A stretch of 32,000 nucleotides of DNA from NCBI RefSeq assembly GCF_000186885.1, contig NC_014972.1:3570001-3602000 (forward strand). Reading direction: 5' to 3'. Of the stretch, positions 2,585 through 30,162 are shown in pieces. Position 1 is the stretch's first letter; every line of letters begins with the position of its first letter. Source of the DNA: Desulfobulbus propionicus DSM 2032. GTDB lineage: Bacteria > Desulfobacterota > Desulfobulbia > Desulfobulbales > Desulfobulbaceae. The position numbers were made by a program, and so were the translations under genes. The notes below the pieces were generated by a model. That model worked only from the letters and a program-made list of their open reading frames with translations, searched no databases and had not been told where the DNA came from.

Positions 2585-3808
2585 TTACGGCATGGTTGTT
2601 TCCTCCTGATCACGCATGGTGCATGCAGGGGTGGCCCCGGCTGAGCCCAGCGTTTCCATACTCCGCCATTTTTCCGCAAACCCCAGGGCAAGTGCCCGGC
2701 AGGTGAGATGGAGAAAGGCCTGGTTATCGGTCTGCCGGCAGGTTGGCGCCAGGGTCTGGCGATAGTGGTCCAATCGGCAATAATCACCGCTGACGGCACA
2801 AGCCGTCTGCGCGGCATAGGCGGCCATGATCTCACTCCAGCAGGTCCTGGGCAGCACGCCCCAGGCAATTTTGTCGCGCAGATGCATCAGGGCGGCCACT
2901 GCGGCCACGGTGAGCGGATCATGTTCAAAGGCGAGGAAATTGGCGCGCAGCAGATCCGCCTGATCCTGATCCAGGAAGGCGCAGATTTCGTCGGCCAGCC
3001 CGGCGCGATTGATGCCGAAGCGTTCCAGATGGATCTTGAGCGAACATTGCCCGGCCGGGGTGAGGTTGTTCTGCCGGGCCAGGGTACCCTTGATCGCCTC
3101 AAAGACGGCACGTCCGATCAGTTCGCCGAGCTTGGCGTGCTTGCCGGCACTGGTCAGGAGCGGTCCATTACCCTCCATGGCCGCCACCGCAATCTGATCG
3201 GTGCCAGTGCCGGTGGCCAGGCCATCGGAGTAGCGGGAGTTGACCGCCAGTTCCTGGAGCACTGCGGTTTTGGCCTCGGTGGCGGTCATGATGCAGCGGG
3301 TCAGGGCACCGGGGATGAGCGGCTGGCTGATAAAGAGCAGGGTGTTAATGGTGCCGGGGCCAGGGATGGTTTCCGCCGGCGGCAATCGTTCAAAACCCTC
3401 CGCAGTTTCCACCACTGAAGCCGGGTCACCGACCCTCCCGGCATTGCCCTCGACGCCGCCGGTACAGACAGCCGCCACGGTGAGATCGCGAAACTGCTGC
3501 ACCGCGATGCAGGCATGGTGCATGTTGGCCGCTGTACCCAAGGTGGCGCAGGCCTCGGCCTCCAGGTTGTGCCGCTCGCAGATGGAACGGCGGTAGGCCA
3601 GAGGATCACGATAGGCCATGGAAGGCAGACGATGGCAGTGCCCGGCCGGTTCACAACTCTGGTGGTTGTAGAGGCAGGTCAGATCGGTACGCAATCCCCC
3701 TGCCACCCGGCAGGTGGAGAGCACGCTGTGCGGCTTGAGGAAGCGGGCATAGATGATCTTTTCTTCGCGGTGGAGTTCCACGCCGTTGTAGAAGGTGTCG
3801 ATGAGCAT
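2585..3808 (-). CDS. cbiZ: Adenosylcobinamide amidohydrolase CbiZ (cytoplasmic form) with ~150-aa C-terminal extension
   Basis: 407 aa with no signal peptide. CbiZ motifs are GTINTLLFIS, IMTATEAKTAVL, ATGTGTDQIAV and GKHAKLGELIG. The C-terminal ~150 residues are helical and unassigned. Confidence 0.88.
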   Translation of the reverse strand: MLIDTFYNGVELHREEKIIYARFLKPHSVLSTCRVAGGLRTDLTCLYNHQSCEPAGHCHRLPSMAYRDPLAYRRSICERHNLEAEACATLGTAANMHHACIAVQQFRDLTVAAVCTGGVEGNAGRVGDPASVVETAEGFERLPPAETIPGPGTINTLLFISQPLIPGALTRCIMTATEAKTAVLQELAVNSRYSDGLATGTGTDQIAVAAMEGNGPLLTSAGKHAKLGELIGRAVFEAIKGTLARQNNLTPAGQCSLKIHLERFGINRAGLADEICAFLDQDQADLLRANFLAFEHDPLTVAAVAALMHLRDKIAWGVLPRTCWSEIMAAYAAQTACAVSGDYCRLDHYRQTLAPTCRQTDNQAFLHLTCRALALGFAEKWRSMETLGSAGATPACTMRDQEETTMP

Positions 3809-3917
3809 GTTGGTCGGTTGTTTCGTCTGTGGGTTGATAGTCTGTTGGGTTTTATGCGGAAGGGTTCGGCTGCCTGAAAAGATACAGACTCAACAGCTCT
3901 CAGCTCTCCACCTCTCC

Positions 3918-4652
3918 TCAATCCCTGGCCCGATTGACCGAGTGCAGGGCCAGCCAGAAAAAAAACAGGCCGATGACCAGCAGTACCAGATAATCAAAAC
4001 CTTCCGCCGGCTGGCCGAGGCTGGTGGCACGGATGGCGTGTGAGGCATGGGTCAAGGGCAGAAAGGAAAGCAAGGCCTGGGCCCAGACCGGCAGCTTTTC
4101 CACCGGGAAAAAGGTGCCGCCCAGAAAGGCCATGGGGGTGATGATAAAGCTGGTGAGCAGGCTCTGGTCGGCATGCGACTTGACCAGCATGGCCATGGCC
4201 ACCGCCAGGGAGGCGAACACGAAGCAGTTGAGCGCGACCGCCAGCCAGAACAGCAGCCCATAGTGAAGCACTACGCCAAAGGGCAGACTGAGCAGCAAAA
4301 TCACCGCCACACCCAGGAGCGCCCGGGTCATACCGGCCAGGGTCTCACCGGCCACATAGGCCAGATTGCTGATCGGTGCAGCCTGGAACTCCTCGAAGAT
4401 GTTCCAGTAAAAACGGGCCACATTGATGTCGGTGGCAATAGCAAAGGCCTGGGTCATGCTCGCCATGGCCACCAGGCCAGGGATAAGAAAATGAAGGTAG
4501 GACTGCTCGCCGAAACGAATCAAATCGCCCATGGCATAGCCAAAGGTGATCAGATACAGCAGCGGCGACACCGCCATCCCGGCCAATTGGCGCTTGAAAC
4601 GGTACTTGAGAATCAACATCTCCCGCAGATAGACCGCGACGAACCCGTTCAT
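3918..4652 (-). CDS. ABC-2 type transporter permease
   Basis: 244 aa with about 6 TM segments, starting MNGFVAVYLREMLILKYRFKRQL as is typical of the ABC-2 membrane family. The ATG overlaps the stop of the upstream ATPase (ATGA). Confidence 0.85.
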   Translation of the reverse strand: MNGFVAVYLREMLILKYRFKRQLAGMAVSPLLYLITFGYAMGDLIRFGEQSYLHFLIPGLVAMASMTQAFAIATDINVARFYWNIFEEFQAAPISNLAYVAGETLAGMTRALLGVAVILLLSLPFGVVLHYGLLFWLAVALNCFVFASLAVAMAMLVKSHADQSLLTSFIITPMAFLGGTFFPVEKLPVWAQALLSFLPLTHASHAIRATSLGQPAEGFDYLVLLVIGLFFFWLALHSVNRARD

Positions 4653-5488
4653 GACACCACCTTCTTGCCGGTGAGGCTTAAGAAGGCATCCTCAAGATTG
4701 ACCCGCCGCAGGGTAAAGCCGCAGTCCTGGGCAGCGGTAAATGCGGCGGCCTGGTCACGGTCGGCAAAGTAGAGGGTCTGCATCCCTTCTCCGTTCATCT
4801 GATCCACGGCCCAGTGGCCCAGGCGGGCCATCAAGTGTTGGGGGTTATCCAGGGCAACGATCCTGCCCTGGTCGAGAAAGGCCACCCGACCGGCGAGGAA
4901 TTCCGCCTCCTCGATGTAATGGGTGGTGAGAAAGATGGTGGCCCCATCCTGCTGCACCCGCTTGATCAGCGCCCAGATGCGGCGGCGAATCCCCGGATCC
5001 AGGCCAACGGTGGGTTCGTCCAGAAAGAGGATCTTTGGTTCGTGCATCAGCGCCCGGGCGATCATCAACCGCCGCTTGAGCCCGCCGGAGAGCTGTTTGA
5101 CCAGCGAATCCGCCCGGTCGAGCAGCTCGACATAGCTCAGCAACTCCTCGATCTTCTGCCGGCGGCGGCGTGCATCCATGGCAAAGAGCCGGCCGTGAAG
5201 GTCGAGGTTCTCGCGCACGCTCAACTCGCTGTCCAGGTTGATATGCTGGGTGACCAGCCCGCACTGCCGCTTGGCAGCCTGTGCGTCGGTGACAATGTCG
5301 TGACCGCCCAGGGTCACCCGCCCGCAGCCGATACGGGTCAGACCGGTGAGGATGCGGATGGTGGTGGTTTTGCCGGCACCGTTGGGACCGAGAAAAGCAA
5401 ACAGCTCGCCCGCGTCCACCGAGAGATCGATGCCGTCCACGGCCTTGACCTTGCCGTAGAATTTCTGCAGTTGGTTGATGTGGATCAT
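4649..5488 (-). CDS. ABC transporter ATP-binding protein (ABC-2/DrrA-like)
   Basis: 279 aa with Walker [10 protein letters not shown], signature LSGGLKRRL, Walker B ILFLDEPTVGLD and an H-loop in TTHYIEE. Confidence 0.92.
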   Translation of the reverse strand: MIHINQLQKFYGKVKAVDGIDLSVDAGELFAFLGPNGAGKTTTIRILTGLTRIGCGRVTLGGHDIVTDAQAAKRQCGLVTQHINLDSELSVRENLDLHGRLFAMDARRRRQKIEELLSYVELLDRADSLVKQLSGGLKRRLMIARALMHEPKILFLDEPTVGLDPGIRRRIWALIKRVQQDGATIFLTTHYIEEAEFLAGRVAFLDQGRIVALDNPQHLMARLGHWAVDQMNGEGMQTLYFADRDQAAAFTAAQDCGFTLRRVNLEDAFLSLTGKKVVS

Positions 5489-5637: not shown

Positions 5638-6678
5638 TCACTGCCCGGCCAGTGCCCGTTTACGCAGGGCCTGGACATTATCGGCGATCTCCATCAGCGG
5701 TTGCCGCCGTACCCGGTGCGGCAGGACCAGTTCGGCGCTGGCGCTGATGTCTGCCGATTCGACCTTGGTACGGCCGTCCAGGGCCGCCAGGGTCTTGGCG
5801 GTCTTGAGCATGATGATGTCGCCGCGATGCCCGTCCACCCCAACTTCCAGGCAGGTTTGCGCGATTTCGAACAGCAGCGGCCGCTGCACCTCAACCTGCG
5901 GGTAGAGGGCGCGGGCGATGAGCAAGCGGTCGGCCAGGGCCTCGGACTCGGCGATCCAGCGGGCGGCAAAGCCCTCCGGATCGAGATCAAAGGCAGCCCG
6001 CCGCTCCATGATCGTCACCCGGTCTTCCGCCCGGTGAATCCCCTCAATGTTAACGCAGAGACCGAAGCGGTCGAGCAACTGCGGCCGCAGCTCTCCTTCT
6101 TCCGGGTTCATGGTCCCCACCAGGGTGAAACGGGCCGGATGGGAAAAGGAGACCCCCTCACGCTCGATGGTGTTGACGCCCATGGCAGCGGAATCGAGCA
6201 GCACATCCACCACATGGTCATCGAGCAAGTTGACCTCATCGACATAGAGGATGTTGCGGTGTGCCTGGGCGAGGATGCCGGGCTCGATCCGTTTTTCCCC
6301 TTTTTTCAGGGCATGTTCGAGATCAAGGGTGCCCACCACCCGGTCCTCGGTGGCGCCCACAGGCAGCTCCACCACCCGCACCTTGCGCTTGCTCACCTCA
6401 GGGCAGGCCTCGGGAGGATGGCCTTGGGTGAGCAGACGGATCTCGGTAAACACATCCAACTCCGACTCGGGGTCGAGTTGGAACGGATCCTCGCTGAACA
6501 CTGCAATCTCGGGGAGGATGTCAGCCAGGGCACGGACCGCCGTCGACTTGGCCGTGCCCTTCTCACCGCGGATGAGCACCCCGGAGAGACCTGGATTGAC
6601 CACATTGAGCATCAGGGCCAGTTTCATTTTTTCCTGACCAACAATGGCGGTGAAGGGATAGATGGGTCGGTTGTTCAT
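5638..6678 (-). CDS. ChlI/BchI-like AAA+ ATPase subunit of a class I (CobN-type) chelatase
   Basis: 346 aa. The N-terminus [40 protein letters not shown] is the ChlI signature with Walker A. Walker B is [20 protein letters not shown], and [20 protein letters not shown] follows. The ATG overlaps the chlD-like stop (ATGA). Confidence 0.93.
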
Positions 6679-8720
6679 GGGTGTTGTCCTCGCACGATGT
6701 TGACCAAGGCTTCAGCCTTGAGGTCATCGATTTTAAAGTATTGGGCCTCCATGGCCCCGGCCAGCCGCCGGGCCAAACCGAAGGTGACCAGACCGGCCTC
6801 CTCGGTATCGACGACGATGGAGCGGATGCGCTGGTCACGGCCCAGGGCCTCAGCCAGGCGCAGTGACTCCTCCACCGGCTTCTGCTCCCCCAGGGAGACG
6901 TTGCACTTGCCGTCGGTGATAAAGAGCACAATGGGTTGGGCGGTGGGGTTCTTGATCAGGTAGTTGCGCACCTGCTCAAAACTCTTGGCCAGTCCGGCGG
7001 AAAGCGGGGTGCGCCCACCCACCGGCATCTCGGCAAGCAGCCGGCCGGCCATATCCACCGAGGTGGTGGGCGGCAGGTTGATGAAGGCCGCATCGCGGCG
7101 GAAGGTGATCATCGAGACCTTGTCGCGCTTCTGGTAGGCATCAAGCAGCAGCGACATCACCGCACCCTTAGAGGCGGCCATCCGCCCCCGCGCCCCCATG
7201 GAACCGCTGGCATCGACCACGAAGAGGAGAAAGTTGCCGATACGTTTCTCGCGCACCTTGGAGCGGATATCCTGGGGCCTGAGCTGCACCGCCAAGTCGC
7301 TGCCGTTTTTCCCTGCCCGCTGCTGCTGATACGGGGCAGCGGCGCGCAGGGTGGCATCGAGGGCAAAGTCGCCGTTATTGTGCAGGGTGCTCTTGACGTA
7401 TCGCCCCTGCTTCTGCGAGATACGGCTGCGCGTGCGTCGGCCCGAGCCCCGGCGCACCACCCGGTCCTTGGCGGCAGCAAGCGGTTTGACTTGAAAGGTG
7501 GAGCCGATGGCAAAGACCTGGTCCTCGCGTTCTGCGGCTGCCTGGCCCTGTATTTCCTCCTCGGCCTGTTCCTCGGATTGCGATTCCTCCTGGCTCTGCT
7601 CCTGCGGTTGGGGTGGAGGCGGTGCCGTCTGGCTTTGAGGATTCTCCTGGGGTTGTTGCTGTTCCTGCTGCTCGCTCTGTTCTTCCTGCTCCTGTTGGTC
7701 GGTTTCCTCGGGCAAAGGGGGTTCCGGTGGGGGCGGAGGGGGTGGGGGCTGGGCATCCCGGCGGCGGTGCAGCAGCACCAACGGCGCCACCTTGCCGATA
7801 TGTTCCACACTGACCTCGGTCTTGCCCTCCAGGGCGGCCAGGGCTCGCGCCGCCTGCTCCAGCACCAGGTCGGCCCGGTGACCGGCAACATTATTTTCTT
7901 GGCAGAGAGCAGCGATGAAGCCGCGCAGTCCCTTGCTGAGTCGCACCCAGGGCAGCAGGGTCTGTCCCTGGATGATACGGTGCGCCAGTTGCTCGTTCTC
8001 CTCGCGGTAGCGGCGAACAAAGCCGGCCGGATCCTGATCAAAGGCCTCGCGCCGCTCCATCAGTTCGACCCGCAACTCAGGCTCCTCGGCCCCGGTCACC
8101 TCCAGACAGAGGCCGAAGCGGTCGAGCAGTTGCGGCCGCAACTCGCCTTCTTCCGGATTCATGGTGCCCACGAGGATAAAGCGCGACGGATGGCGGTAGG
8201 AGATGCCCTCGCGCTCGATACGGTTCTCCCCGCTGGCCGAGGCATCGAGAATCAGATCGACGATGTGATCATCAAGCAAGTTGACCTCGTCGATGTAGAG
8301 CAGGCCGCGGTGGGCCTCGGCGAGCAGGCCAGGGGAGACCACCACCCGCCCCTCGCGCAGGGTACGGGGGAAATCAATGCCACCGCTGACCCGATCTTCG
8401 GTGGCATTGAGCGGCAGATCCACCAAGGGTACCGGCCGGGTGGCACGGGGCAGATCCGGAAAGCGCCGCTCGCATTCCGGGCAACGTGGGCTTGAGGGCG
8501 CGGGCGAACAGCTGTTGACGCAACCCGCCACCACCTCCATCTCCGGTAGCAAGGCTGCCAGGGCCCGCACCATGGTCGACTTGGCCGTGCCCTTTTCGCC
8601 GCGCACCAGCAGGCCGCCAACGCCGGGATTGATGGCCGCCAGCAGCAGCGCCTGCTTGAAGCTGTCCTGGCCGACCACCGCCGCCAGGGGATAGATCGCT
8701 TTTCTCATGCAATTCCCCAT
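6675..8720 (-). CDS. ChlD/BchD-like chelatase subunit (AAA+ N-domain, Pro/Gln/Glu-rich linker, C-terminal vWA domain)
   Basis: Start re-called to ATG 8720-8718 ([21 protein letters not shown]...), which shares one base with the TGA of the upstream receptor. The AAA+ region reads GEKGTAKST and [13 protein letters not shown]. The linker is [34 protein letters not shown]. The vWA/MIDAS region reads [10 protein letters not shown].... Confidence 0.9.
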
Positions 8721-10431
8721 CACATCCTCCAACTGACACCGGCCATCCAGGTCAGGGGCGGGCCGAGCAGGCCATCGGCGTAGTAGTAGGTGGTGTCGGC
8801 GAGGTTCTTGATCTCGGTGAACAGGGCGTATTGGCCCAGCCGGTATTCGGCGCGGAGATTGGCCAAGGCATAGTCGGGCACGGTAGTGGTGTTGGCGCGA
8901 TTGAGGAAGACCTCGGAGACGTACTTGGCGGAGAAGACCGTGGTCAGCCGCTCGCTCACCTGCCAGGTACAATCGAAGGTGGCGGTATGCTCGGCCTTGG
9001 CCGGGACGAACAGGCCACTCTCTTCGTCAATGGCCCGCATGTAGGTGTAGCCGGCCTTGAGGTTGAGGGGGGTGATCGGTTTCCAGTTGATCGCCACATC
9101 GCCGCCACGGTAGCTGACCTCGCCGAAATTCTCGTACTGGCCGATGCCATCATAACCGGTGACATAGGTGATGCGGTCGCTGAGCAGGTTGTAGAAGACC
9201 GAGGTCCGCAGGGTGAGTTGTTCGATCGGCGTCAGTGCCAGGGCCAGGCTGTAGTTGTCGGCGGTTTCCATGCCCAGGTCCGGATTGGGCCGGGTGGAGC
9301 TGGTGTGGTTATAGCGCTGATAAAATGAGGGAATATTGTTGCTGCCGCTGTAAGAGCCGGTCAGGCTCCAGCACGGTTGCTGGTAGAGCAGTTTCAGTTC
9401 CGGATTGAGCACATCGTCAAAGGCGGTGTTGGCATTGACGCGCAGGCCCCCGGACAGGGACCAGGGACTCTGCCCTTGATGGATGGTCTGGCTGGCAAAG
9501 AGGGAAAAAACCTCCTCGCTCTGATCAGCAAAGGTGGTGCCGTGGGCCTGGGCCAGGCGATAACCGGCGCCGTAGGCCAGTTCGCCCAACCCGCCGGTGG
9601 TGATGGATGCACTCAGATCCTCGCCCAGTTCGTTGACCCGCAAGCGTTGGTCCAGGGCTCGGCTGATATCGGTGTTGTGCTGCTCACCGCTATTGAAGAA
9701 GGTGGCGCTGGTATAGCCGTAGGCGCGGGCCTGGGCGGAGAGGATGGCAGTCTCGTTTTCCTTGCGCGATTGCGGGGTGGGGTAGTCCGGCAGGCCGGTC
9801 AGACCCCGCTCATCGTGGACAAAATCAGCGCCGAGATTGATGCCCCGCTCTTCATCCGCATTGTAGGCGAGCTTGAGCCCGGCCCGGTGGCGCAGGCTGT
9901 CGTCGTTGATCGTGTAGCCCTGGGTGGTTTCCACCTCGCCACCGGCCTCTGCCCCCCATTGGCCACGGCGAGCCTGGACATTGGCTCCGGCATACCCGGT
10001 ATCCTGGTTGCCGCCGTAGGTCTTGATCGATCCGCTGACGGCGCTGATCGCCCGGGTGGTGACAAGGATCACCCCGCCGCCCGCATCCTGGCCGTAGCGC
10101 ACCCCGCCCTTGCCGCGCAGGATCTCGATCCGCTCCACCTGGTCCGGGTCGACCATGGACCAGTTGATAGCCCCGTAGCTGGAGGTGGGATCGTTGATCG
10201 GCCGTCCGTCCACGAGCACCCGCACCTTGGAGGAACCGTGGATGCTCACCGAGGTGTCACCGGCACTCACCCCGGGCACATGGTTGAGCAGATCAGCCAT
10301 CTTGTTGGCCTTCAACTGCTTGATTTCCTCAGCCGTGAGGATGATGGCGCCTTCCTCCTCCTGGCCCGAGCCTGCACCCGGTGCCAAAAGCGTGCCCAGG
10401 CAGGTCAGCAGCGCGCAGGCCCAGGGCCGAA

Positions 10432-10444
<13 letters not shown>
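8720..10444 (-). CDS. TonB-dependent outer-membrane receptor (short, BtuB-size) embedded between cobN and chlD-like
   Basis: Start re-called to ATG 10444 (MERIIRPWACALLTCLGTLLAPGAGSG signal peptide), 13 nt inside the cobN 3' end. It has a TonB-box-like GAIILTAEE and the plug motif IEILRGKGGVRYGQDAGGGVILVTTR. A beta-barrel-like alternating sequence runs to the C-terminus ...MAGVSWRM. Confidence 0.9.
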
Positions 10445-14210
<3,766 letters not shown>

Positions 14211-14211
<1 letters not shown>

Positions 14212-15458
14212 CAGGCCTCCTCGGTATGGGGGGAAAAGGATCGGCAACAGGCAAAGGTTTCCAGGCAGGCGATCAGGGCCGTGGCGTCGGCGCAGTGCCG
14301 AGGAGCGGATTCGCCGTTGACCCGTAAACCCGGCGGCACCCCCTGGCGCAGACTGAGCAGGGGCAGACCGCGATCAAGGGCGCCCTGCAGCAAGTCCACA
14401 TTGGCCTGGTTGGCCGGCCCCACCGGAAAACCGCTATCAATGACCAGATCACAGCCGTCCATCAATTCCAGGGCCTGCTGGGTGGCCGCGCCGTTGATCG
14501 TGGCCATGGGCTCGACCGCAACGCAATCCGCGCCGAGCGAGCGGGCCACATACCAGTCGAGGTCATTGCCGTGGACCACACCGGTGGCCAGGGCAAAACC
14601 CTTTTTGGCCAGGATGCGGTAGACCAGGGCGCCGCTGCCCATGCCGCCGACCACGAAGGCGCGGCCGTGGTCGCCGGCGCTTTTGAGCTCGATGCCACCG
14701 AGATCCCGATTGAACCGGGCCTTGTCAAACTCGTAGAGGGTGGTGACACTGTCGCCGCTGAGCACTGCTTCCGGGGCACCCCAGGCCATCAACCCGCCGT
14801 CGCGGATCAGGGCCACCTGGTCACTGACCTTGGCCGCCACATCCACATCGTGCAGCGAGGCAATCACCGTGATGCCCTGGCTGCGGCAGAGGTCGCGGAG
14901 GATGGCCATCACCTCCACCCGGTGTTTGAGATCCAGATGCATGGTGGGTTCATCGAGCAGCAGCATCCGCGGCGCCTGGGCCAGAGCCCGCGCCATCAAC
15001 ACCTTCTGCCGTTCACCGTCGCTGAGATCGACAAAGGCACGCTCGGCCAGCTCCAGGGCATGGACCGCAGCCAGCGAGGAACTCACCGCCACCTGATCCT
15101 GGGAGCCGAGGCGACCGAGGTAATCGGTATGGGGATAGCGGCCCAGGGCCACGAACTCGAACACCGAAAACATCGGCGGCGCGATCTTGTCGGTGAGCAC
15201 CACCGCCATGGTCCGGGCCAGGTCCATGGCGGAGAGCTGCGACAAAGGCCTGCCCTGCACCCTGATCTCGCCGGCCACGGGGGAAAGGTGACGGGACAGG
15301 GTGCGGAGCAGGGTGGTCTTGCCGGCGCCGTTGGGTCCGAGCAGACTGATGAACTCCCCGGGGCGGCAGGTAAAGGAGAGATCGCGCAGCACAGTGCGGT
15401 TTTTGTAGCCGACACTCAGGCCGGTTACTTCCAGGATGGGGGATTGGTTGGTGCTCAT
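14211..15458 (-). CDS. ABC importer ATP-binding protein (FepC/BtuD-like) fused to an unassigned ~160-aa C-terminal domain
   Basis: 415 aa. The N-terminal ~255 aa carry Walker [10 protein letters not shown], signature LSDGERQKV, Walker [13 protein letters not shown] and an H-loop SLHD. The C-terminal part ([34 protein letters not shown]...) looks Rossmann-like but I cannot name it. Confidence 0.9.
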
Positions 15459-16504
15459 AGTTTGACCCTCCGTTTGAGCAGCAGGGTGATAACAATCGGG
15501 GCGCCGAAAAAGGCGGTGATCGCCGAGAGCGGTAACTCCACCGGCGCCATGACCGTGCGGGCGATCAGGTCGCAGAGGCTGGCCACCAGCCCGCCCATGA
15601 GGCAGGCGCCGGGGATGAGGATGCGGTTATCCGAGGTGCCGAAACCGAGCCGGGCCATGTGCGGCACGGCCATGCCGATGAAAGCCACCGGCCCGGCCAT
15701 GGAGGTGACCATCCCGGCCAGGGCGCAGGCACAGAGCAGGATCAAGAGGCGGAAGCGGCGGATGTCGACTCCCATGGAACCGGCGTACTCCTCGCCGAGC
15801 AAAAAGGCGTTGAGCGGTTTGCTCTGCACATAGAGCAGCACCAGGATGGCGCCGCCAGCGGCCAGCAGCAGCCAGATCTCATCCCACTTGAAGCCGGAGA
15901 AACTGCCCAGCTGCCAGAGGACAAAGCCCTTGATTTTGTCCTTCTCGGCAAAGGCGGTGAGGATGGCGCTGACCGCACCGCAGAGGTAGCCCATCATCAG
16001 GCCGACGATCAACAGCGTCACCCCGCCTTTGACGCGGTTGGCAATGGCGAGCACGACCAGCATAACCCCGTAGGCGCCGGCAAAGGCGGCCAGGGTGGAG
16101 ATGAACGGGGTGAACAGGGTCCAGCCGATGGTGACGCTGGTGAGCATCACAAAGGAAACCATCAGGGTGGCGCCGGAACTGATGCCGAGGATATAGGGGC
16201 CGACAATAGGGTTGCGGAAATAGATCTGCAACAACAGCCCCGAGGCCGCCAGATAGGCACCGCCGAAGACTGCGGCAATGGCACGGGGAATGCGGATATT
16301 CCACAGGATGGCGGTGGTGGTCGAGGCATCCTGCGGATGGCAGAGCGCCTGCCAGATCTCGTTGAGGGGAAAGGAAATCGAACCGATGGCCACATTGAGC
16401 ACCAGCATCACCAGGGTGAGCATCCCAAGCAGGGCAAAAACCAGCGGTGGACGCCGCAGCAGCAGCGGTCGCACCTGGGGCAGACAGCATTCAGAGGTGG
16501 TCAT
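15455..16504 (-). CDS. FecCD/BtuC-family ABC importer permease
   Basis: 349 aa and polytopic. Typical FecCD features are RIPRAIAAVFGGAYLAASG and the C-terminal PLSAITAFFGAPIVITLL. ATGA overlaps occur at both ends. Confidence 0.92.
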   Translation of the reverse strand: MTTSECCLPQVRPLLLRRPPLVFALLGMLTLVMLVLNVAIGSISFPLNEIWQALCHPQDASTTTAILWNIRIPRAIAAVFGGAYLAASGLLLQIYFRNPIVGPYILGISSGATLMVSFVMLTSVTIGWTLFTPFISTLAAFAGAYGVMLVVLAIANRVKGGVTLLIVGLMMGYLCGAVSAILTAFAEKDKIKGFVLWQLGSFSGFKWDEIWLLLAAGGAILVLLYVQSKPLNAFLLGEEYAGSMGVDIRRFRLLILLCACALAGMVTSMAGPVAFIGMAVPHMARLGFGTSDNRILIPGACLMGGLVASLCDLIARTVMAPVELPLSAITAFFGAPIVITLLLKRRVKL

Positions 16505-17646
16505 GATTGCTCCTTGACGGGTGGGGGCTCGGTATTGGGCAACTCGGTGAAGTAACGCAGCCGGTAGTTGGGATAGGCCTCGGGATGGAGGATGGCGCTG
16601 ATCTCGGTGAGGATCTCGTCCAAGCGGTCCGCCGACTGGCTGTAGTGGGGGAGCGGCGCATAGACCCGGCCGCGTTTGAGTGGGCCGATGTCCCTGATCA
16701 GCGGGTTGAGCTTGGCCAGGGCCTCCTTGGAGGTGGCCCCCATTTCTCCGGTGCGGTAGGTAAAAAAGATATCCGCATCCTGGCCGGAGTAGAGAAAGCG
16801 CTCCACGGTGATCTCGATGCAGGCGGTGCCGAAGACATCCTTGAATTGGTAATCGGACTGGGCCAGTCCCACCAATTCCCCCACCCAGGCGTTGCCCGGT
16901 TCAACCATGACCCGTTTTTCGTAGATATCGCCCCACATCACCTTGGGCTGATGGGCCAGGCCGGCGGTGCGGGCGCGGATGTCGCTCAGTGCCGCATCGA
17001 TGCGGGCAAAATAGCTCTCCGCTTCGCGCTCCTTGTGGAAGAAGGGAGCGAGAAACTGGACAAAACGCATACGGGTATTGAGGCACATGGCGGTGGGCGT
17101 GGTGGTGACCACGGCGGGAATACCGAGATCATCGAGCAGGGGAATCACCCCCGGATCCCAGGTGAGCACCAGTTCCGGGTTGCTCTGCTTGAGCCGCTCG
17201 AAATCGATACTGGCAGCATCGCCGAGATAGGCAATCCGCCCGGCCTCCATGCCCTGCCTGATCTCGGGAATGTACCAGCGTTGAGCCGGCGAGGTCACCC
17301 CCACCAGGGTCTGTTCGAGTACGCCCAGGGCTCGGAGCACAGCAATATCAAAGGCCCCGTAGGCGGCCACCCGCTGCACCGGGGTGCGCACCACCTGGCT
17401 CGGCCGCACATCGGTGGGCATGGCCGCCTCGCGGGGGATGAGCACCAGGGTGCGGCCGGCGCCGTCGCGGACCTCGGTACGCTCAGGTGAGATGCGGTTG
17501 ATACTGAACTCACCTATTTGCAGAAAGGCGGGTTGTTGCCGCTCAGGTCCGGAGCCGTTGGCCGCGTCCTTATCGCTGCGACACCCAGCCAAAACCAGCA
17601 GCCCAATCAGCGCGCTGAGCAGCCAGAAAAAAGATATTCGTCTCAC
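16501..17646 (-). CDS. Periplasmic substrate-binding lipoprotein of the BtuF/siderophore (class III) family
   Basis: Start re-called to GTG 17646 (RBS GGGAGG 10 nt upstream, GTGA overlap with the resB-like stop). The track's TTG at 17676 is less likely. The lipobox is LLVLAGC. A binding-protein-like fold is suggested by RVAAYGAFDIAVLRALG and PELVLTWDP. Confidence 0.88.
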   Translation of the reverse strand: MRRISFFWLLSALIGLLVLAGCRSDKDAANGSGPERQQPAFLQIGEFSINRISPERTEVRDGAGRTLVLIPREAAMPTDVRPSQVVRTPVQRVAAYGAFDIAVLRALGVLEQTLVGVTSPAQRWYIPEIRQGMEAGRIAYLGDAASIDFERLKQSNPELVLTWDPGVIPLLDDLGIPAVVTTTPTAMCLNTRMRFVQFLAPFFHKEREAESYFARIDAALSDIRARTAGLAHQPKVMWGDIYEKRVMVEPGNAWVGELVGLAQSDYQFKDVFGTACIEITVERFLYSGQDADIFFTYRTGEMGATSKEALAKLNPLIRDIGPLKRGRVYAPLPHYSQSADRLDEILTEISAILHPEAYPNYRLRYFTELPNTEPPPVKEQS

Positions 17647-18449
17647 GATGTGCGAGCCTCCCGAATCATCATCCAATCAAAGAAATAGAGCACAAGGCCC
17701 AGGGAAAAGAGAACCATACCTGCCAGATAGAGCCCGACCCCCGGATCCTTGCGCACAAAGAGATCGACTCTGGTTTTCATCTTCATTCCACCCTGACTTT
17801 TAGGGAAAAAATTGCGCAGATGCAGGCTGTAGCCCTGAAACCGCACCGGTCGGGTACAACTGAGGATCGCCTCCCGCTTGGTCATGCCATCATCAAGCAG
17901 CAGCCTGACTCGGGCGGTGATGACCTCATCCTCAAGAAAGGCGAGGCGCTTGCCCTGGTAGTACTCGGGTTCAAAGGCGATGAGTTCGACCTGACCCCTC
18001 GTGCCGGGTAAGGAGAGGTGGGTACCCGGCACCAGGGTACTGCCGGTCAGGACGTCGGTGAACAGATAGCTGCACAGATAGCCGGCAAGGATGATGATCA
18101 GGGCGTAGTGCATGATGTGCGGCGCCAGCTTGAGCAGCCCCGGCCATCCACTGCGGCGGACGGCCAGGAGCTGGCGCATGCGGTTGGTGGTACAGACGAA
18201 GGTGTTGGCAGTCAGGACACTGAGCAGCACCAGCAGCAGGAAAAACCAGCTGGTCTGCTCCAGGTTGTGGCTGCCGTAGGTACGCATCCAGGCTGTCAGC
18301 CCCATGTCGTTGAGCGGGACGAACAAAGCGGTGTGCCGCACCAGGCAGAAATACCCCCAGATCAGATCCAGCGTCAAAAGCACGCAGAGGCCAATGGTCA
18401 GGTTGATGCTGGCTAACCCCTGCCAGATGACGGTGCAGATTCCTTTCAT
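17643..18449 (-). CDS. ResB/CcsB-like membrane protein, unusually short
   Basis: 268 aa with about 4 TM segments. A ResB-like periplasmic segment reads ...AILSCTRPVRFQGYSLHLRNFF, and the C-terminal TM is preceded by KDPGVGLYLAGMVLFSLGLVLYFF. The ATG overlaps the ccsA-like stop (ATGA). Confidence 0.75.
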   Translation of the reverse strand: MKGICTVIWQGLASINLTIGLCVLLTLDLIWGYFCLVRHTALFVPLNDMGLTAWMRTYGSHNLEQTSWFFLLLVLLSVLTANTFVCTTNRMRQLLAVRRSGWPGLLKLAPHIMHYALIIILAGYLCSYLFTDVLTGSTLVPGTHLSLPGTRGQVELIAFEPEYYQGKRLAFLEDEVITARVRLLLDDGMTKREAILSCTRPVRFQGYSLHLRNFFPKSQGGMKMKTRVDLFVRKDPGVGLYLAGMVLFSLGLVLYFFDWMMIREARTS

Positions 18450-19231
18450 GGCATCACCAGACCACGAAAGGGGCCAATATCAGGTAGGCAGCTTAAGCAA
18501 AGGACAACCAGGCCACCCAGACCAACGAAGATGGCCCTTGCCTGCTGGCTCCAGGTTTTGCTGAGGTGAAGATGGAGGACGCAGGCATAAAAGAACCAGC
18601 CCGCCATGGTCAGGGTCAGGGCCGGATCCTCCCAGACCACCGGCGTACCCCAGCCCAGATAGCACCAGAGTTCGCCGCAGAACATGGAAGCCGTCCACAG
18701 TCCGAATCCCAGCGCGGCCCAGCGCAGGGACTTATGCAGGGCAACCGTGGGTCGCAGACCATCGATCCACCTGTCGCTCAGGGGCCAGACGCACAGGGCC
18801 CAGGCGGCGCTGATGACACAGCTTGCCTTGGCGAAGAGGGCAAACCAGAGAAACCCATGACTGAGCAGGGTCTTGGACTTGAGAAAGGGCAGATAAAAAT
18901 CCTTGGGGAAAGCGAGAGACGTGACCACCAGAGCAACAAGCAGCGCAAGGACAAGCCGCCAGAGCATGCGCTCGCCCGGCTCTGAGCCGTTGCCGATACA
19001 CAAGGCCAGCAGCCCCAGGCAAAGCGGCAGCGCCACGGCGCCGAGATGCATCGGCAACATCGGCCAGGCCTGGGTATAACGAAGGGCAACAATCACCAGG
19101 TTGCATCCCAGGGCCGGCAGCAGCAGAATCCGCGAAAGGAATACCCACCGCTGCGGCAGGAAGGCGGCCATCAGCGAGGTCAGATAACAGAGTCCGGCGC
19201 AGAGCCATGTTGTCTGGGTCAGGTGGTTCAT
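18446..19231 (-). CDS. CcsA/ResC-family (cytochrome c assembly-type) membrane protein with degenerate WWD motif
   Basis: Start re-called to ATG 19231 (MNHLTQTTW...). The track's 19447 start would run through the riboswitch terminator. 261 aa and polytopic. The WWD-like segment is GELWCYLGWGTPVVWEDPALTLTMAGWFFYACVLHLH, with flanking His residues (SHGFLWF, LHLH). Confidence 0.8.
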   Translation of the reverse strand: MNHLTQTTWLCAGLCYLTSLMAAFLPQRWVFLSRILLLPALGCNLVIVALRYTQAWPMLPMHLGAVALPLCLGLLALCIGNGSEPGERMLWRLVLALLVALVVTSLAFPKDFYLPFLKSKTLLSHGFLWFALFAKASCVISAAWALCVWPLSDRWIDGLRPTVALHKSLRWAALGFGLWTASMFCGELWCYLGWGTPVVWEDPALTLTMAGWFFYACVLHLHLSKTWSQQARAIFVGLGGLVVLCLSCLPDIGPFRGLVMP

Positions 19232-19421
19232 ACTTCTACCCCCGAAATAACGGGGAGATGAAGCGACAGCCTGCGCATGGCGGCAGGACTCCGACAGGGG
19301 TGGAAATGATGAACAGAGATGGGTATGACCTGAAGGTGTTGCATGGCTCCTCGCACACGGGTTCGGTGGTGGAGTCAACAACGGGGAGAAGGGGGCCACG
19401 GCCTGCGGTTGGTGGGCGGGC

Positions 19422-19464
19422 AAAAAAAAATCCCGGATCGAATACAATAAATTCGATCCGGGAT
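19422..19464 (-). terminator. Intrinsic terminator forming the expression platform of riboswitch no.2
   Basis: Minus strand reads ATCCCGGATCGAAT-ttattgt-ATTCGATCCGGGAT followed by T9. That is a perfect 14-bp stem (19430-19443 / 19451-19464) plus a U-run (19422-19430). Confidence 0.8.
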
Positions 19465-19536
19465 AGCCCTATTTATCCGCAGAAATATATCAGATTACCG
19501 GGTACGCCGCCGTCCACGCAGTCGTCTCCAAACATC

Positions 19537-19699
19537 CATTCAGGCAGGTCTTCTGACTTCCGGCTCATCCTACTAACTGCGTCTTCCCAACCCTTCTAGG
19601 GTCAGTGACTTTGGTGCAGCGTTCGTCCCCGGTCACAGCGGCGGGCCCGTCCCCGATTTACGCGGGGTTCCCTCTTGCGTTCTTGCGAACACCTGAATG
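19537..19699 (-). promoter_or_regulatory. Cobalamin (B12) riboswitch aptamer no.2
   Basis: P1 is cattcagg / cctgaatg. The core reads agaGGGAAccccGCGtAAAtCGGggaCGGgCCCGCcGCTGT, GTCACTG and GGGAAG, with B12 box AGTCAGAAGACCTGCC (revcomp of 19543-19558). Confidence 0.9.
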
Positions 19700-19704
19700 T
19701 GCAA

Positions 19705-19735
19705 TGCATAAAACAGATACACCGGGCAAAGTCAA
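19705..19735 (-). promoter_or_regulatory. Candidate sigma70-type promoter for riboswitch no.2 operon
   Basis: Minus strand reads TTGACT (19735-19730), N19, TATGCA (19710-19705), then 6 nt before the P1 strand ATTCAGG. The other two riboswitch cassettes show the same -10/6 nt/ATTC..CAGG layout. The spacer is long, so confidence is low. Confidence 0.3.
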
Positions 19736-20005
19736 GATAATTACATGACAAAGCCTTTAATAAAATAAAATAATTGCGGTTTTTTTCAGCAACATTCCTC
19801 GCATCTACCCTAATCACGCCACACCAGGCATGAACATCCACGACACAAATACCGAACAGATGATGTACAGATATTGATACAATTTATCTTTTTGGCAAAC
19901 GCGCACAAAGAGTACAATGCAATTTTTTATCACCAGCAATGATCAACAACAACTCCGACTTCCAACCATTCTGAAATTGCAGTCAAAAGCTCCGTGCTCT
20001 TCTTT

Positions 20006-20996: not shown

Positions 20997-21745
20997 TTAT
21001 CCTTCCAGTTTGAAGGTGATGGTCTGTTCCACCAGGGCTTTGACGGCCACGCCGCCTTTGGTGCCTGGTCGAAATCGCCAACCGGAGATACATCGCAATA
21101 CGGCTTGCTCAAACACTCCTTCTGGATCGGCGTCCAACACAGCGACCTTGTCCACTTGCCCCTGCTCATCGACCACGAATTTGACCTTGATCCAGCCCTC
21201 GATGTTACGGCGCTTGGCGGCTGGAGGATAGACTGGTGGAGCCTTTGCAACCGCAGCCAATGGGCCATCAAGCTGACCGACAGTATAGATGCCGCCCCCA
21301 CCCCCACGTGCGCTTTCTCCCTGGGCGGAGCTCGCGGAGGGAGTTGCCGCCGAGGCCGCAGCGGCACTTACATTACTCGTCGACACCGAGGATGTCGTGC
21401 CTTGAGGTTGCATTTGCGGCGAACTGGCGGCCACCGGGACTGTCTCCACAGGTGTTTTTTGTTCTTCAACAGGTTTCTTTTTACCACAGGTGGTGGCGAC
21501 TTTTTCGCCACCGGCTTGGGCATGTTTTTCTTCTTGACCGGGGCAGGCGCTTTCGAGGCCGGAGGCGAAGCAGGAACAGCTTGCGGTGGTCCAGCCTCTG
21601 GAGGACCTGATGCCTGCAGAATGGAAAAGTCCAAAGCCACCGGTAGGCGTACCGGCGGGGTGTGCTGACTGATGGTCACGGCTGCGAGAAAAAACATCGC
21701 ATGTACGAGCAGGGAAAACTGGGTAGCTTTGATTTGTCGGGTCAT
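20997..21745 (-). pseudogene. tonB: TonB energy transducer, reading frame interrupted by an apparent 1-nt frameshift
   Basis: ORF 21368-21745 encodes the N-terminal TM and Pro/Lys-rich region (...APAPVKKKNMPKPVAKKSPPPVV). ORF 20997-21449, in another frame, encodes the linker and TonB C-terminal domain (...YPPAAKRRNIEGWIKVKFVVDEQGQV...). Adding one A to the A5 run (plus-strand T5 at 21478-21482) joins them as ...PPPVVKKKPVEEQKTPVETVPV.... The total length of 749 nt is not a multiple of 3. Confidence 0.8.
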
Positions 21746-22125
21746 AGCTGCTGTTCGGTTTGCAAACTTAAGGTTGTAAAACCAAGACGTTTGAGTGCCT
21801 CATACACATCGACAAATAACTGGAGGGGAATATCCTTATCTGCACGGAGAATGATTGGAGTGAGCCGATCCGCATCGGCCAGAGTGGCTTCTAATCCCTC
21901 TAAAGGTATTTCCATCGAGTCAACCCAGAGCTTGCCCTCCTTGTTGACGACAAGGGTGCGCGGATGGATCGCGGCCAGTTCTTCGCTGGCCTCGGCCTTG
22001 GGCAGTTCGACCTTAATGCCGCCGGTGGCGATAAAGGTGGAGGTGGTGAGGACGATGGTTAGCAGCACCAGCATTACATCCACCAACGGGATGACATTGA
22101 GATAATCAAACTCCTTTTCGTCCAT
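21742..22125 (-). CDS. exbD: ExbD/TolR-family biopolymer transport protein
   Basis: 127 aa starting MDEKEFDYLNVIPLVDVMLVLLTIVLTT, the typical ExbD N-terminus and TM. ATGA overlap with the tonB start. Confidence 0.9.
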   Translation of the reverse strand: MDEKEFDYLNVIPLVDVMLVLLTIVLTTSTFIATGGIKVELPKAEASEELAAIHPRTLVVNKEGKLWVDSMEIPLEGLEATLADADRLTPIILRADKDIPLQLFVDVYEALKRLGFTTLSLQTEQQL

Positions 22126-22537
22126 GGCAGATATCCCATTGCATCAGCAGCACCTTGCAGCGGCGCAGCAGCAGGTTGTAGAGAGTGACCGCTGGGATGG
22201 CCACCAGCAGTCCCAAAGCCGTGGCTTTCAGCGCCAGGGCTAGGCCGGTCATGATTTTGGTGGTGTCGAAACCAGCCGCGCCGATGTCGTAAAAGGTGAG
22301 CATGATGCCCAGTACCGTGCCCAGCAGGCCGATATAGGGGGCGTTGGCGCCGATGGTGGCAATCAGGTGCAACTTATGGGAGAGGTGCAACTCCAGCACC
22401 TTCCGATCCGCGTACTGCTCGACACGCACTGCGCGATACACCAGCCAGCGTTCCATCGCCAGGGCCAGGGCTACCACACTCATGAAGAGCAGCAATCCAA
22501 GAATCCCATAATCAATCAAATTGTGAAGATATTCCAT
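22106..22537 (-). CDS. exbB: ExbB (MotA/TolQ/ExbB proton-channel family)
   Basis: Start re-called to ATG 22537 (RBS gggaggagtctcATG). 143 aa with 3 TM segments and the signature PYIGLLGTVLGIM. Confidence 0.9.
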   Translation of the reverse strand: MEYLHNLIDYGILGLLLFMSVVALALAMERWLVYRAVRVEQYADRKVLELHLSHKLHLIATIGANAPYIGLLGTVLGIMLTFYDIGAAGFDTTKIMTGLALALKATALGLLVAIPAVTLYNLLLRRCKVLLMQWDICHGRKGV

Positions 22538-22763
22538 GAGACTCCTCCCACGATGAAAGCAAAAAAAACAACGGGTTCGACAAAACAGAATCACCAACGT
22601 AAGAGCAACGGCCTTGGGCTTGCGCCTGAAAGCCACGCTCAATCGGTGGAGGGAACAGAGAGGAAAAGAAGAGATGAAGGTTCCTTTGCATAACTACTAC
22701 TCACTTGTAAAAGGAGGTAGAACGACGGCAAAGGAGCACCTGACACCGTGGCCAGCATAGAGC

Positions 22764-22806
22764 AAAAAAAAATCCCGGATCGAATACAAAAAATTCGATC
22801 CGGGAT
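22764..22806 (-). terminator. Intrinsic terminator forming the expression platform of riboswitch no.3
   Basis: Minus strand reads ATCCCGGATCGAAT-tttttgt-ATTCGATCCGGGAT followed by T9. The stem is identical to the terminator at 19422-19464. Confidence 0.8.
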
Positions 22807-22878
22807 AGCCCTATTTATCCGCAGAAATATATCAGGTACCGGGGTACGCCGCCGTCCACGCAGTCGTCTCCAAACATC

Positions 22879-23044
22879 CATTCAGGCAGGTCTTCTGGCT
22901 TCCGGCTCATCCTACTGACTGCGTCTTCCCGACCTTTTCTCAAGGTCAGTGACTTAAGGTGCAGCGTTCGTCCCCGGTCACAGCGGCGGGCCCGTCCCCG
23001 AATCGCACGGGGTTCCCTCTTGTGTTCTTGCGAACACCTGAATG
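22879..23044 (-). promoter_or_regulatory. Cobalamin (B12) riboswitch aptamer no.3 (near-duplicate of no.2)
   Basis: It has the same P1 (cattcagg/cctgaatg) and the same core as no.2. The B12 box is AGCCAGAAGACCTGCC. GTCACTG and CCCGCcGCTGT are present. Confidence 0.9.
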
Positions 23045-23049
23045 CTGGA

Positions 23050-23080
23050 AGGATAGAAACTATAGCTCCTAAAATGTCAA
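23050..23080 (-). promoter_or_regulatory. Candidate promoter for riboswitch no.3 / exbB operon
   Basis: Minus strand reads TTGACA (23080-23075), N19, TATCCT (23055-23050), then 6 nt before ATTCAGG. It is bracketed by a 9-bp inverted repeat, GGATAGAAA (23051-23059) / TTTCTATCC (23090-23098). Confidence 0.3.
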
Positions 23081-23258
23081 GAAAATATTTTTCTATCCAT
23101 CCTATTGGCCATCTCGATAATAGTAAAATGTGTAATATGGGTATAAGATCGCAACAAATTGCAATAGCGACATTTTTCACGATTACTTGACACTGCTACA
23201 CAACCACGTCGTGAGACGTGTCGAAATCTTTCCCTGCAACGCCTTCTACTTTTTTCGC

Positions 23259-23286
23259 TTGACTTTCACTGCAAACCGTCTAAACA
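23259..23286 (+). promoter_or_regulatory. Candidate promoter for riboswitch no.4 / plus-strand operon
   Basis: TTGACT (23259-23264), N16, TAAACA (23281-23286), then 6 nt before the P1 strand ATTCTCAGG at 23293. Confidence 0.4.
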
Positions 23287-23292
23287 CAGCCC

Positions 23293-23456
23293 ATTCTCAG
23301 GCGCTCGCAAGAGCTTAATAGGGAACTCCGTGTGAATCGGAGACAGGCCCGCTGCTGTATTCGGGGACGACCGCTGCATTTTGAGTCACTGACCTTGTTG
23401 TCGGGAAGACGCAGCCAGTAGGATGATCCGTGAGTCAGAAGACCTGCCTTGAGAAT
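23293..23456 (+). promoter_or_regulatory. Cobalamin (B12) riboswitch aptamer no.4
   Basis: P1 is attctcagg / ccttgagaat. The core reads aatAGGGAActccGTGtgAAtCGGagaCAGgCCCGCtGCTGT, GTCACTG and GGGAAGA, with B12 box AGTCAGAAGACCTGCC (23434-23449). Confidence 0.88.
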
Positions 23457-23516
23457 TGAGCGAATGCTTCGTGGACGGAGGCGCGCTCGCACCATATCCA
23501 CGGATAAAAAAGGGAC

Positions 23517-23561
23517 ATCCCGGATCGAATACTTTGAGTTTTCGATCCGGGATTTTTTTTT
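23517..23561 (+). terminator. Intrinsic terminator forming the expression platform of riboswitch no.4
   Basis: ATCCCGGATCGAA-tactttgagtt-TTCGATCCGGGAT followed by T9. The stem sequence matches the two minus-strand terminators. Confidence 0.8.
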
Positions 23562-23606
23562 GCCGAACCCACCTATGAAAGTGCAGGTGTCACGCAGGAG
23601 GATGGT

Positions 23607-24029: not shown

Positions 24030-24056
24030 ACAGCTCAATCTTTCCAGGAGAACGCC

Positions 24057-30067: not shown

Positions 30068-30135
30068 GGTGGTCACTGCAAAGGAGCGATGACACCGGGG
30101 TGGTTCGTGCTTGGGGAAAGAATACCCAGCTCCCG

Positions 30136-30162
30136 GTCATTTCGACCAAAGGGAGAAATCTC
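30136..30162. repeat. Half-copy of the gtcat..tcga....gagaaatctc repeat seen at 5597-5624
   Basis: gtcatttcgaccaaagggagaaatctc versus gtcatgtcgagcgcagcgagaaatctc. About 20 of 27 positions are shared by eye, and it is intergenic. Confidence 0.4.

Follow-up and report, generated by a model that had tools for sequence, protein, structure and literature searches.

The stretch of DNA analyzed here comprises 32,000 nucleotides (nt) of the Desulfobulbus propionicus DSM 2032 genome (NC_014972.1, positions 3,570,001 to 3,602,000; hereafter the window). Its minus strand carries an operon in which a cobalamin riboswitch and an intrinsic terminator precede genes for a CcsA-like and a short ResB-like protein, relatives of the system II cytochrome c synthetases (Table 1). 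Both genes lie directly upstream of genes for a BtuF-like lipoprotein, a BtuC-type permease, a BtuD-type ATPase and a CobN-type chelatase subunit, and the role that such a pair may play in this setting is the subject of this text. An earlier note, made from the sequence of this DNA alone, had placed the pair first behind the B12 riboswitch and had described its linkage by ATGA and GTGA overlaps to the genes for the binding lipoprotein, the permease and the ATPase; both statements hold. As read off the sequence, the successive junctions from the CcsA-like gene to cobN are ATGA, GTGA, ATGA, ATGA and TGATG (overlaps of 4 nt and 1 nt), so that the first six genes of the operon are translationally coupled.

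Profile comparisons place the CcsA-like protein within the superfamily to which system II belongs. It matches PF01578 above the cut-off (40 bits versus 29.9), while the system II equivalog model TIGR03144 yields 37.4 bits against a cut-off of 187.6 and covers the WWD-transmembrane region only. When a profile of 40 family members was compared with reference proteins by hhalign, Kineococcus CcsB (92%) and Brevibacillus ResC (77%) were matched over the WWD region and the next two helices, and E. coli YpjD reached 18%. YpjD belongs to the same Pfam family and is of similar size (263 amino acids), but it is more distant than canonical CcsA and possesses neither a WWD-like motif nor a ResB partner nor a btu context; we rejected it as a relative on the basis of its hhalign value and the missing motif. 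Searches of the PDB sequences with single CcsA-like sequences and with the family profile returned nothing relevant. The ResB-like protein exceeds the PF05140 cut-off only at the borderline (24.9 versus 24.6 bits), and in hhalign (74%) the profile of its family matches Brevibacillus ResB from the first transmembrane helix to the start of the periplasmic domain (residues 4-180). Its AlphaFold model, with a predicted local distance difference test (pLDDT) score of 86.6, contains four transmembrane helices and a beta domain of about 100 residues, and Foldseek recovered CcsBA 7S9Y (E 4e-7, probability 1.00), CcmF 6ZMQ (2e-5) and CcsBA 7S9Z (3e-5) as the sole significant PDB matches of this model. 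We dismissed as chance the phmmer matches between the ResB-like protein and ribosomal protein uL5 (E ~0.02).

The best match of the pair in both sequence and structure is therefore CcsBA/ResB-ResC, represented by H. hepaticus CcsBA (7S9Y/7S9Z) and the B. subtilis-type ResBC, with which it shares the WWD and ResB/CcsB membrane modules and the periplasmic beta domain in the ResB part. The D. propionicus proteins are smaller, however, with 261 versus 328-408 amino acids for the CcsA-like and 268 versus 553 amino acids (Brevibacillus ResB) for the ResB-like protein; the latter has a cytoplasmic loop of about 20 and a beta domain of about 100 amino acids and lacks the large domain of canonical ResB proteins (~450-550 amino acids). 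The gene order is also reversed, with the ccsA-like gene first. Judged by these profiles and models, we regard both proteins as true, albeit distant and divergent, homologs of the system II proteins.

All WWD proteins have a four-helix core, a WWD loop and two periplasmic histidine ligands (P-His1 and P-His2), and CcsBA and CcmF additionally hold an inner-leaflet heme on two transmembrane histidines (TM-His1 and TM-His2); cysteine pockets for the CXXCH motif are formed by the WDSKE residues together with N-terminal WWD residues (PMC10663686). We counted the residues at these positions in 40 CcsA-like and 31 ResB-like family members after mapping them onto Brevibacillus ResC/ResB and Kineococcus CcsB. 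P-His1 is present throughout the CcsA-like family (H125, 40/40) at the periplasmic end of a core transmembrane helix, within LKSxTLxxH instead of the canonical LQSYWLKIH. TM-His2, located in the helix after the WWD loop and aligned to ResC H365 and CcsB H285, is kept in 39 of the 40 proteins (H220, LHLHL for the canonical YLHLR). All 31 ResB-like proteins possess TM-His1 (H114, aligned to Brevibacillus ResB H230; APHIMHYA for the canonical GPYVNHIG), and all share with ResB a cysteine at the cytoplasmic end of the second transmembrane helix (C86, NTFVCTT for the canonical ICSLDR). Beside each of the two transmembrane histidines stands an extra one that sets the pair apart from CcsBA/ResBC: H222 in the CcsA-like (38/40) and H111 in the ResB-like family (31/31). 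P-His2, in contrast, has been lost. The canonical C-terminal GLHSYAG is replaced by GPFR (F255 in 38/40, R256 in 40/40), none of the 40 CcsA-like proteins has a histidine at this position, and a single member has any histidine after residue 222, in the loop right after TM-His2. The earlier statement that the flanking histidines remain is hence correct for H125 and H220 but not for the second periplasmic histidine; altogether, the pair retains three of the four heme-ligand histidines.

The WWD loop of the family (W189-A204) reads W189..GWGTPVVW[DE]DPA where canonical proteins have WANEAWGRFWGWDPKE; in the D. propionicus protein, WGTPVVWEDP occupies residues 194-203. The canonical WGxxWxWDPKE is not found in the CcsA-like family: the equivalent of W837 is a valine, and those of K842 and E843 are a proline and an alanine. 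This sequence had been described as a degenerate WWD motif in the earlier note. GWGTPVVW[DE]DPA does not vary within the family, however, and the alignment thus identifies the motif as a strongly selected variant and not as a degenerate one. Read from these alignments, the pair keeps one of two periplasmic histidines, has lost the residues that hold the CXXCH motif, and has both kept and reinforced the bis-histidine site in the membrane.

To place these findings in a wider context, we surveyed riboswitch-linked ccsA-like genes in other genomes, as the earlier note had proposed. One scan of 185,579 species genomes yielded 55 species-level loci of about 20 kb each, nearly all of them from Thermodesulfobacteriota (Desulfobulbales, Desulfobacterales, Desulfarculia and Desulfacinum); the exceptions are one metagenome-assembled genome labeled 'Pelobacter' and the alphaproteobacterium Oleispirillum naphthae. 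The order CcsA-like, ResB-like, BtuF, BtuC, BtuD is constant in the tblastn map of these loci wherever the sequence extends far enough. Wherever sequence is available, the gene after the CcsA-like one is the ResB-like gene, usually at a distance of 0-50 nt, and CobN, the receptor and ChlD/ChlI come after BtuD in nearly all of them. In O. naphthae (locus L042, 9923-14759), the five genes for the CcsA-like, ResB-like, BtuF, BtuC and BtuD proteins stand alone, without CobN, among unrelated neighbors (a TctC-type gene, a nucleoside transporter and an amidase), and this arrangement looks like a minimal functional unit that was transferred horizontally. The pair and BtuFCD are accordingly the smallest set of genes inherited together, and this points to the importer, not the chelatase, as the functional partner of the pair. 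At the opposite extreme, a Desulfosarcina sp. locus (L058, 10001-11103) contains a CcsA-like remnant of 29% identity followed by short CobN fragments and ChlD/ChlI/ABC/CbiZ; it looks like a decayed locus from which the ResB-like gene, BtuFCD and most of CobN have been lost.

The window harbors four cobalamin riboswitches that score 97-111 bits with RF00174 (gathering score 31.5), and a covariance model built from these four was used to survey the 55 loci. A same-strand riboswitch lies upstream of the CcsA-like gene in 46 of them, within 1 kb in 21 cases and at 1.9-6.2 kb in the other 25, where exbB-exbD-tonB or a TonB-dependent receptor gene intervenes. In eight further loci, the contig ends too near the CcsA-like gene for a riboswitch to be called. 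O. naphthae represents the sole true absence, since an Rfam check of the 10 kb upstream of its cassette revealed no riboswitch. In the D. propionicus operon, an RF00174 aptamer and its expression platform are thus found upstream on the same strand and are conserved in orthologous loci, as is characteristic of a cobalamin-riboswitch regulon, and no sigma-70-like promoter was found on this strand between the aptamer and the ATG at 19231. We predict from these features that the pair is under the control of the B12 riboswitch and is repressed by B12. In a Desulfamplus sp. (L017, 9322-11262), the CcsA-like and ResB-like genes are 512 nt apart, and a second cobalamin riboswitch (10768-10958) lies in this gap, which gives each gene one of its own.

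The riboswitch leader of the pair (aptamer plus terminator, about 320 nt) is one copy of a direct repeat (19420-19741 versus 22762-23086; 95% and 81% identity). Relatives possess an exbB-exbD-tonB unit behind a single riboswitch directly upstream of the CcsA-like gene; in the window, tonB is separated from the CcsA-like gene by cbiK and the second leader copy, an arrangement suggestive of a recent insertion or duplication. The tonB homolog (20997-21745, minus strand) is split into an N-terminal part (21745-21494) and a C-terminal TonB_C part (21290-21006) in different frames. Both parts match one TonB protein of a relative, with the frameshift located in the Pro/Ala-rich linker, and the split gene is either a pseudogene or an assembly error.

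Behind the pair, a Peripla_BP_2 protein, a FecCD permease and an ATP-binding cassette (ABC) ATPase are encoded in one operon, the composition of a type II ABC importer. The nearest NCBIfam models of the BtuC and BtuD proteins are B12/corrinoid types, although both scores remain below the model cut-offs. With these proteins, the TonB-dependent receptor, the CobN-like protein and the cobalamin riboswitch, the operon resembles BtuCD-F and the BtuS/HmuS loci of Bacteroidota (there as Peripla_BP_2, FecCD and ABC_tran proteins), but the described systems include no WWD/ResB-type proteins. HmuS and BtuS are periplasmic heme dechelatases (PMC12583661, PMC6460266), whereas the CobN protein of the Desulfobulbus operon has no signal peptide at its N-terminus and is hence cytoplasmic. 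Signal peptides are found in proteins of the other riboswitch units, namely a second CobN-like protein encoded on the plus strand, a BtuF-CbiZ fusion and CbiK; CbiZ would be periplasmic in the fusion because of this signal. The earlier suggestion that the pair might serve a periplasmic set of CbiK, CobN-like and CbiZ proteins therefore receives no support from the comparison of loci: the CobN of the operon is cytoplasmic, and CbiK adjoins the pair in only 2 of the 55 loci and lies in the apparently recent insertion in D. propionicus.

Table 1. Features of the riboswitch-controlled operon of D. propionicus DSM 2032 and of the unit upstream of it (positions refer to the window).
Feature	Position	Strand	Evidence and remarks
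RS-A riboswitch with exbB, exbD and tonB (frameshift-split)	20997..23056	-	RS-A itself at 23056-22868
RS-B, cobalamin riboswitch aptamer at the operon head	19526..19711	-	RF00174, 107.6 bits, E 2.8e-26, full model
Intrinsic terminator, expression platform of RS-B	19420..19464	-	Terminator scan and sequence; 14-bp stem, 7-nt loop, T8; hairpin with T8 at 19464-19430
CcsA-like WWD protein, 261 amino acids, 8 predicted transmembrane helices	18446..19231	-	PF01578, 40 bits; hhalign; 40-member alignment; AlphaFold (AF2) pLDDT 83
Mini-ResB/CcsB-like protein, 268 amino acids, 4 transmembrane helices and periplasmic beta domain of ~100 amino acids	17643..18449	-	PF05140; hhalign; AF2; Foldseek
BtuF-like periplasmic binding lipoprotein	16501..17646	-	PF01497; GTG start, LAGC lipobox; GTGA overlap with the ResB-like gene
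BtuC-type (FecCD) permease	15455..16504	-	PF01032, 266 bits; best NCBIfam BtuC NF003001, below cut-off
BtuD-type ATPase with extra C-terminal domain	14211..15458	-	PF00005; NCBIfam NF007082 'corrinoid ABC transporter ATPase', 245 bits, below cut-off
CobN-type class I chelatase large subunit	10432..14211	-	PF02514, 1312 bits; TIGR02257, 978.6 bits (cut-off 822); TGATG junction with btuD
TonB-dependent receptor (plug domain match)	8720..10444	-	PF07715; syntenic in most loci
ChlD-like (AAA+/VWA) and ChlI-like (AAA+) chelatase motor subunits	5638..8972	-	PF01078, PF13519, PF17863
ABC ATPase, ABC-2 permease and CbiZ (adenosylcobinamide amidohydrolase), distal end of the gene string	2585..5488	-	PF00005, PF01061, PF01955

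Several neighboring genes have features of their own. The BtuD-type ATPase carries a C-terminal extension of about 150 amino acids, for which an MJ0874-like domain is on record in an ortholog, and the CbiZ protein of the operon (2585-3808, minus strand) has a Cys-rich C-terminal extension (17 Cys in 407 amino acids). A third riboswitch unit on the plus strand (23283-31713) encodes DUF4019, the BtuF-CbiZ fusion, a CobN-like protein of 1375 amino acids, DUF2162 and an ExbB-like protein; its last three genes resemble the hmuS-hmuT-hmuU heme dechelatase arrangement of Bacteroidota, yet the unit is B12-controlled.

When the CcsA-like profile was used to search 1.84 billion cluster representatives, 44 sequences were found at E<=1e-30, 102 at E<=1e-10 and 601 at E<=1e-3, with canonical CcsA surfacing only at about 1e-12 to 1e-8. 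Inspection of the motifs and a crude neighbor-joining tree gave three groups: the CcsA-like family, a sister clade of proteins of about 250 amino acids, and canonical CcsA together with the ResC and CcsB references. Placed against bona fide CcsA and ResB proteins, as the earlier note had advised, the CcsA-like family hence forms a clade of its own; in NCBI, its members are named 'cytochrome c biogenesis protein CcsA' or 'hypothetical protein'. Proteins of the sister clade possess the sequence GWxxPFxWSxRHL and lack P-His1, and their genes are followed by one for a mini-ResB-like protein (L069, 9001-10510; L071, 9001-10530; L073, 9001-10634; L067; L068). These loci, likewise from Thermodesulfobacteriota, encode TonB-receptor/ExbBD-TonB proteins, Oxidored_molyb/TP_methylase-domain proteins, FmdE and molybdate/tungstate-type binding proteins, and we found no riboswitch in those examined. 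The neighborhood of the sister-clade pair and Oxidored_molyb-like proteins is one that we take to be akin to the MsrP/MsrQ arrangement. These data suggest that short WWD/mini-ResB pairs generally belong to TonB-dependent uptake systems. The occurrence of the sister clade in TonB loci supports a function other than cytochrome c biogenesis, and a role in electron transfer would fit it as well.

To assess whether the pair might nevertheless mature cytochromes, we inspected the 23 translated proteins of the window for CXXCH, CXXCK and CX3-4CH motifs and found none; a dedicated synthetase for a cytochrome encoded in the operon was rejected for this reason. Among the genes examined around the pair, we identified none of the resA/ccdA type for thiol reduction; the pair thus lacks both the resA/ccdA and the apocytochrome context of CcsBA/ResBC and instead stands upstream of btuFCD behind a B12 riboswitch. 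In tblastn searches with ResB, ResC, CcsB, CcmB/C/E/F and five canonical CcsA proteins, only genes of the CcsA-like and ResB-like families were matched in the window and the 55 loci. A housekeeping role as a cytochrome c synthetase is unlikely because of the predicted repression by B12 and the loss of P-His2 and of the CXXCH pockets. With its distinct clade, its btuFCD neighbors and its riboswitch added to these losses, the proposal of the earlier note that the pair is no ordinary cytochrome c synthetase but part of corrinoid metabolism is supported, and the substrate may be a corrinoid.

We favor the interpretation, to which we assign a probability of about 55%, that the pair assists the importer by handling a tetrapyrrole, probably a corrinoid, and is not a cytochrome c synthetase. 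In this proposal, an 8-helix WWD protein and a 4-helix mini-ResB would form a compact, divergent heme-handling module of the system II type that has become a fixed part of a B12-riboswitch-repressed uptake and salvage machine, together with TonB/ExbBD, the receptor, the BtuF-like and BtuCD-type proteins, the cytoplasmic CobN-ChlID and CbiZ. ResB-like H114 and CcsA-like H220, flanked by H111 and H222, would provide a bis-histidine tetrapyrrole site at the inner leaflet, and H125 would be the single periplasmic histidine beneath the remodeled but strictly conserved WWD loop. The complex may bind a metal tetrapyrrole other than the heme of cytochrome c, probably a corrinoid or another cobalt tetrapyrrole, and either hold this ligand or shuttle it from one side to the other, between periplasmic face and inner leaflet, in cooperation with BtuF/BtuCD, with which it might associate physically; the ligand might also be presented to BtuF/BtuCD or to an enzyme that acts later. 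A single protein histidine suffices as axial ligand of a cobalt corrinoid, as in base-off/His-on B12 binding. Since the operon is headed by a cobalamin riboswitch, the nearest models of BtuC and BtuD are of the corrinoid type and one histidine meets this axial need, a corrinoid would be the most economical ligand. The sole precedent for the coupling of a WWD protein to an ABC ATPase is CcmC in the system I complex CcmABCD (7F04) (PMC10663686, PMC9616876). CcmAB, however, is an exporter-like heme-release machine and not a type II importer with a binding protein, and CcmC has both periplasmic but no transmembrane histidines; its sequence similarity to the CcsA-like family is negligible (hhalign, 2.8%).

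Several observations weigh against this interpretation. The AlphaFold model of the CcsA-like protein had no significant Foldseek match in the PDB, and CcsBA, CcmC and CcmF were not recovered; we treat this blank as a failure of the method and not as evidence against homology. The BtuF-like profile gave weak matches to solved structures of uncharacterized, siderophore-binding and heme-binding proteins, and homology of this kind does not separate B12 from heme or siderophores. All histidine ligands that the pair retains are equally compatible with heme b. BtuCD-F of the E. coli type imports B12 without any such partner, which leaves the need for the pair unexplained. Moreover, CobN-like proteins of btu/hmu operons in Bacteroidota act on heme (PMC12583661, PMC6460266), so that a tetrapyrrole other than a corrinoid is conceivable despite the riboswitch.

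Among the alternatives, a transmembrane reductase resembling CcmF fares best, although we consider it unlikely. Such an enzyme would carry a fixed heme b at the transmembrane bis-histidine site and, instead of translocating a tetrapyrrole, pass electrons from the membrane or the cytoplasm to a substrate at the periplasmic WWD/histidine site; it might, for instance, reduce a Co(III) corrinoid or serve a periplasmic partner protein. The two ligands that it requires count as invariant (H114 in 31/31, H220 in 39/40), and CcmF uses these very ligands to hold a fixed heme b for reduction (PMC10663686). CcmF, a WWD protein with a transmembrane bis-histidine heme b site, also ranks second among the structural matches of the ResB-like model, and the sister-clade pair adjoins Oxidored_molyb-like proteins. 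CcmF differs from the pair, however, in being one polypeptide of ~650 amino acids with both periplasmic histidines, and it operates alongside CcmE and CcmH in the maturation of cytochromes c. We identified neither a quinol-binding site nor any other feature for electron input in the pair, and the conserved residues do not tell a channel from a reductase. In addition, we know of no need for a periplasmic reduction of corrinoids prior to their uptake by BtuF/BtuCD.

Less probable still is a heme exporter, or a specialized synthetase for a cytochrome c or another heme protein, that is co-regulated with B12 uptake and loads, for example, CbiK (as CbiK(P)) or an unusual attachment motif. The membership of the pair in a heme-handling superfamily and its three retained heme-ligand histidines would fit such a function, and a cbiK gene whose product has a signal peptide lies just upstream in the window. 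Wolinella possesses dedicated CcsBA isoenzymes for unusual motifs, but these reportedly keep all important features of CcsB/A (PMC10663686), whereas P-His2 and the CXXCH pocket are lost from the pair. The window encodes no protein with a CXXCH or CXXCK motif, the proximity of CbiK is confined to the two loci mentioned above, and resA/ccdA-type genes were not among the genes examined near the pair. Repression by B12 would be ill-suited to a housekeeping function in sulfate reducers, which are rich in cytochromes. The cassette is furthermore present in an alphaproteobacterium, and alphaproteobacteria normally use system I. A role of the membrane histidine cluster (H111, H114, H220 and H222) as a Co2+ path that supplies CobN is highly improbable, for although two extra conserved histidines stand beside the TM-His positions, the pair is linked to a CobN of the cobaltochelatase type that scores above the TIGR02257 cut-off, and B12 riboswitches commonly control cobalt transporters, the entire WWD/P-His1 periplasmic platform is conserved without having a role in ion transport, the minimal Oleispirillum cassette contains BtuFCD but no CobN, and to our knowledge no member of the heme-handling superfamily transports ions.

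In full-text searches of the literature, we found no paper that connects CcsA, ResB, WWD or heme-handling proteins with a cobalamin riboswitch, BtuF, corrinoids or CobN, and the pair is not mentioned in the study of delta-proteobacterial B12 regulons by Rodionov et al. (2004). The WWD superfamily (CcmC, CcmF and CcsBA) is regarded as dedicated to the trafficking of heme for cytochromes c, and the names given in databases follow suit. The loss of one heme ligand and of the apocytochrome pocket in this small, sharply conserved subfamily, the co-inheritance with BtuFCD and the repression predicted for B12 suggest that the WWD scaffold has been reused in the D. propionicus operon for another tetrapyrrole. 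If so, the uptake and salvage of corrinoids by sulfate-reducing Thermodesulfobacteriota would include an extra, hitherto undescribed step, and a systematic misannotation would be corrected. The CcsA-like/ResB-like pair also offers a natural variant with which the binding and movement of tetrapyrroles by WWD proteins can be dissected, and the five-gene cassette of Oleispirillum is a compact unit suited to heterologous testing. More tentatively, and with clearly less confidence than we place in the accessory role itself, short WWD proteins and their mini-ResB partners may constitute an unrecognized branch of the superfamily in TonB-dependent import, which would provide in this operon a histidine-lined path or platform in the inner membrane for corrinoids or other cobalt tetrapyrroles in concert with BtuCD-F. 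Were this true, the heme-handling superfamily would have its first non-heme substrate, the acquisition of B12 by bacteria would have a new component, and the sister clade would handle yet another imported cofactor-like molecule.

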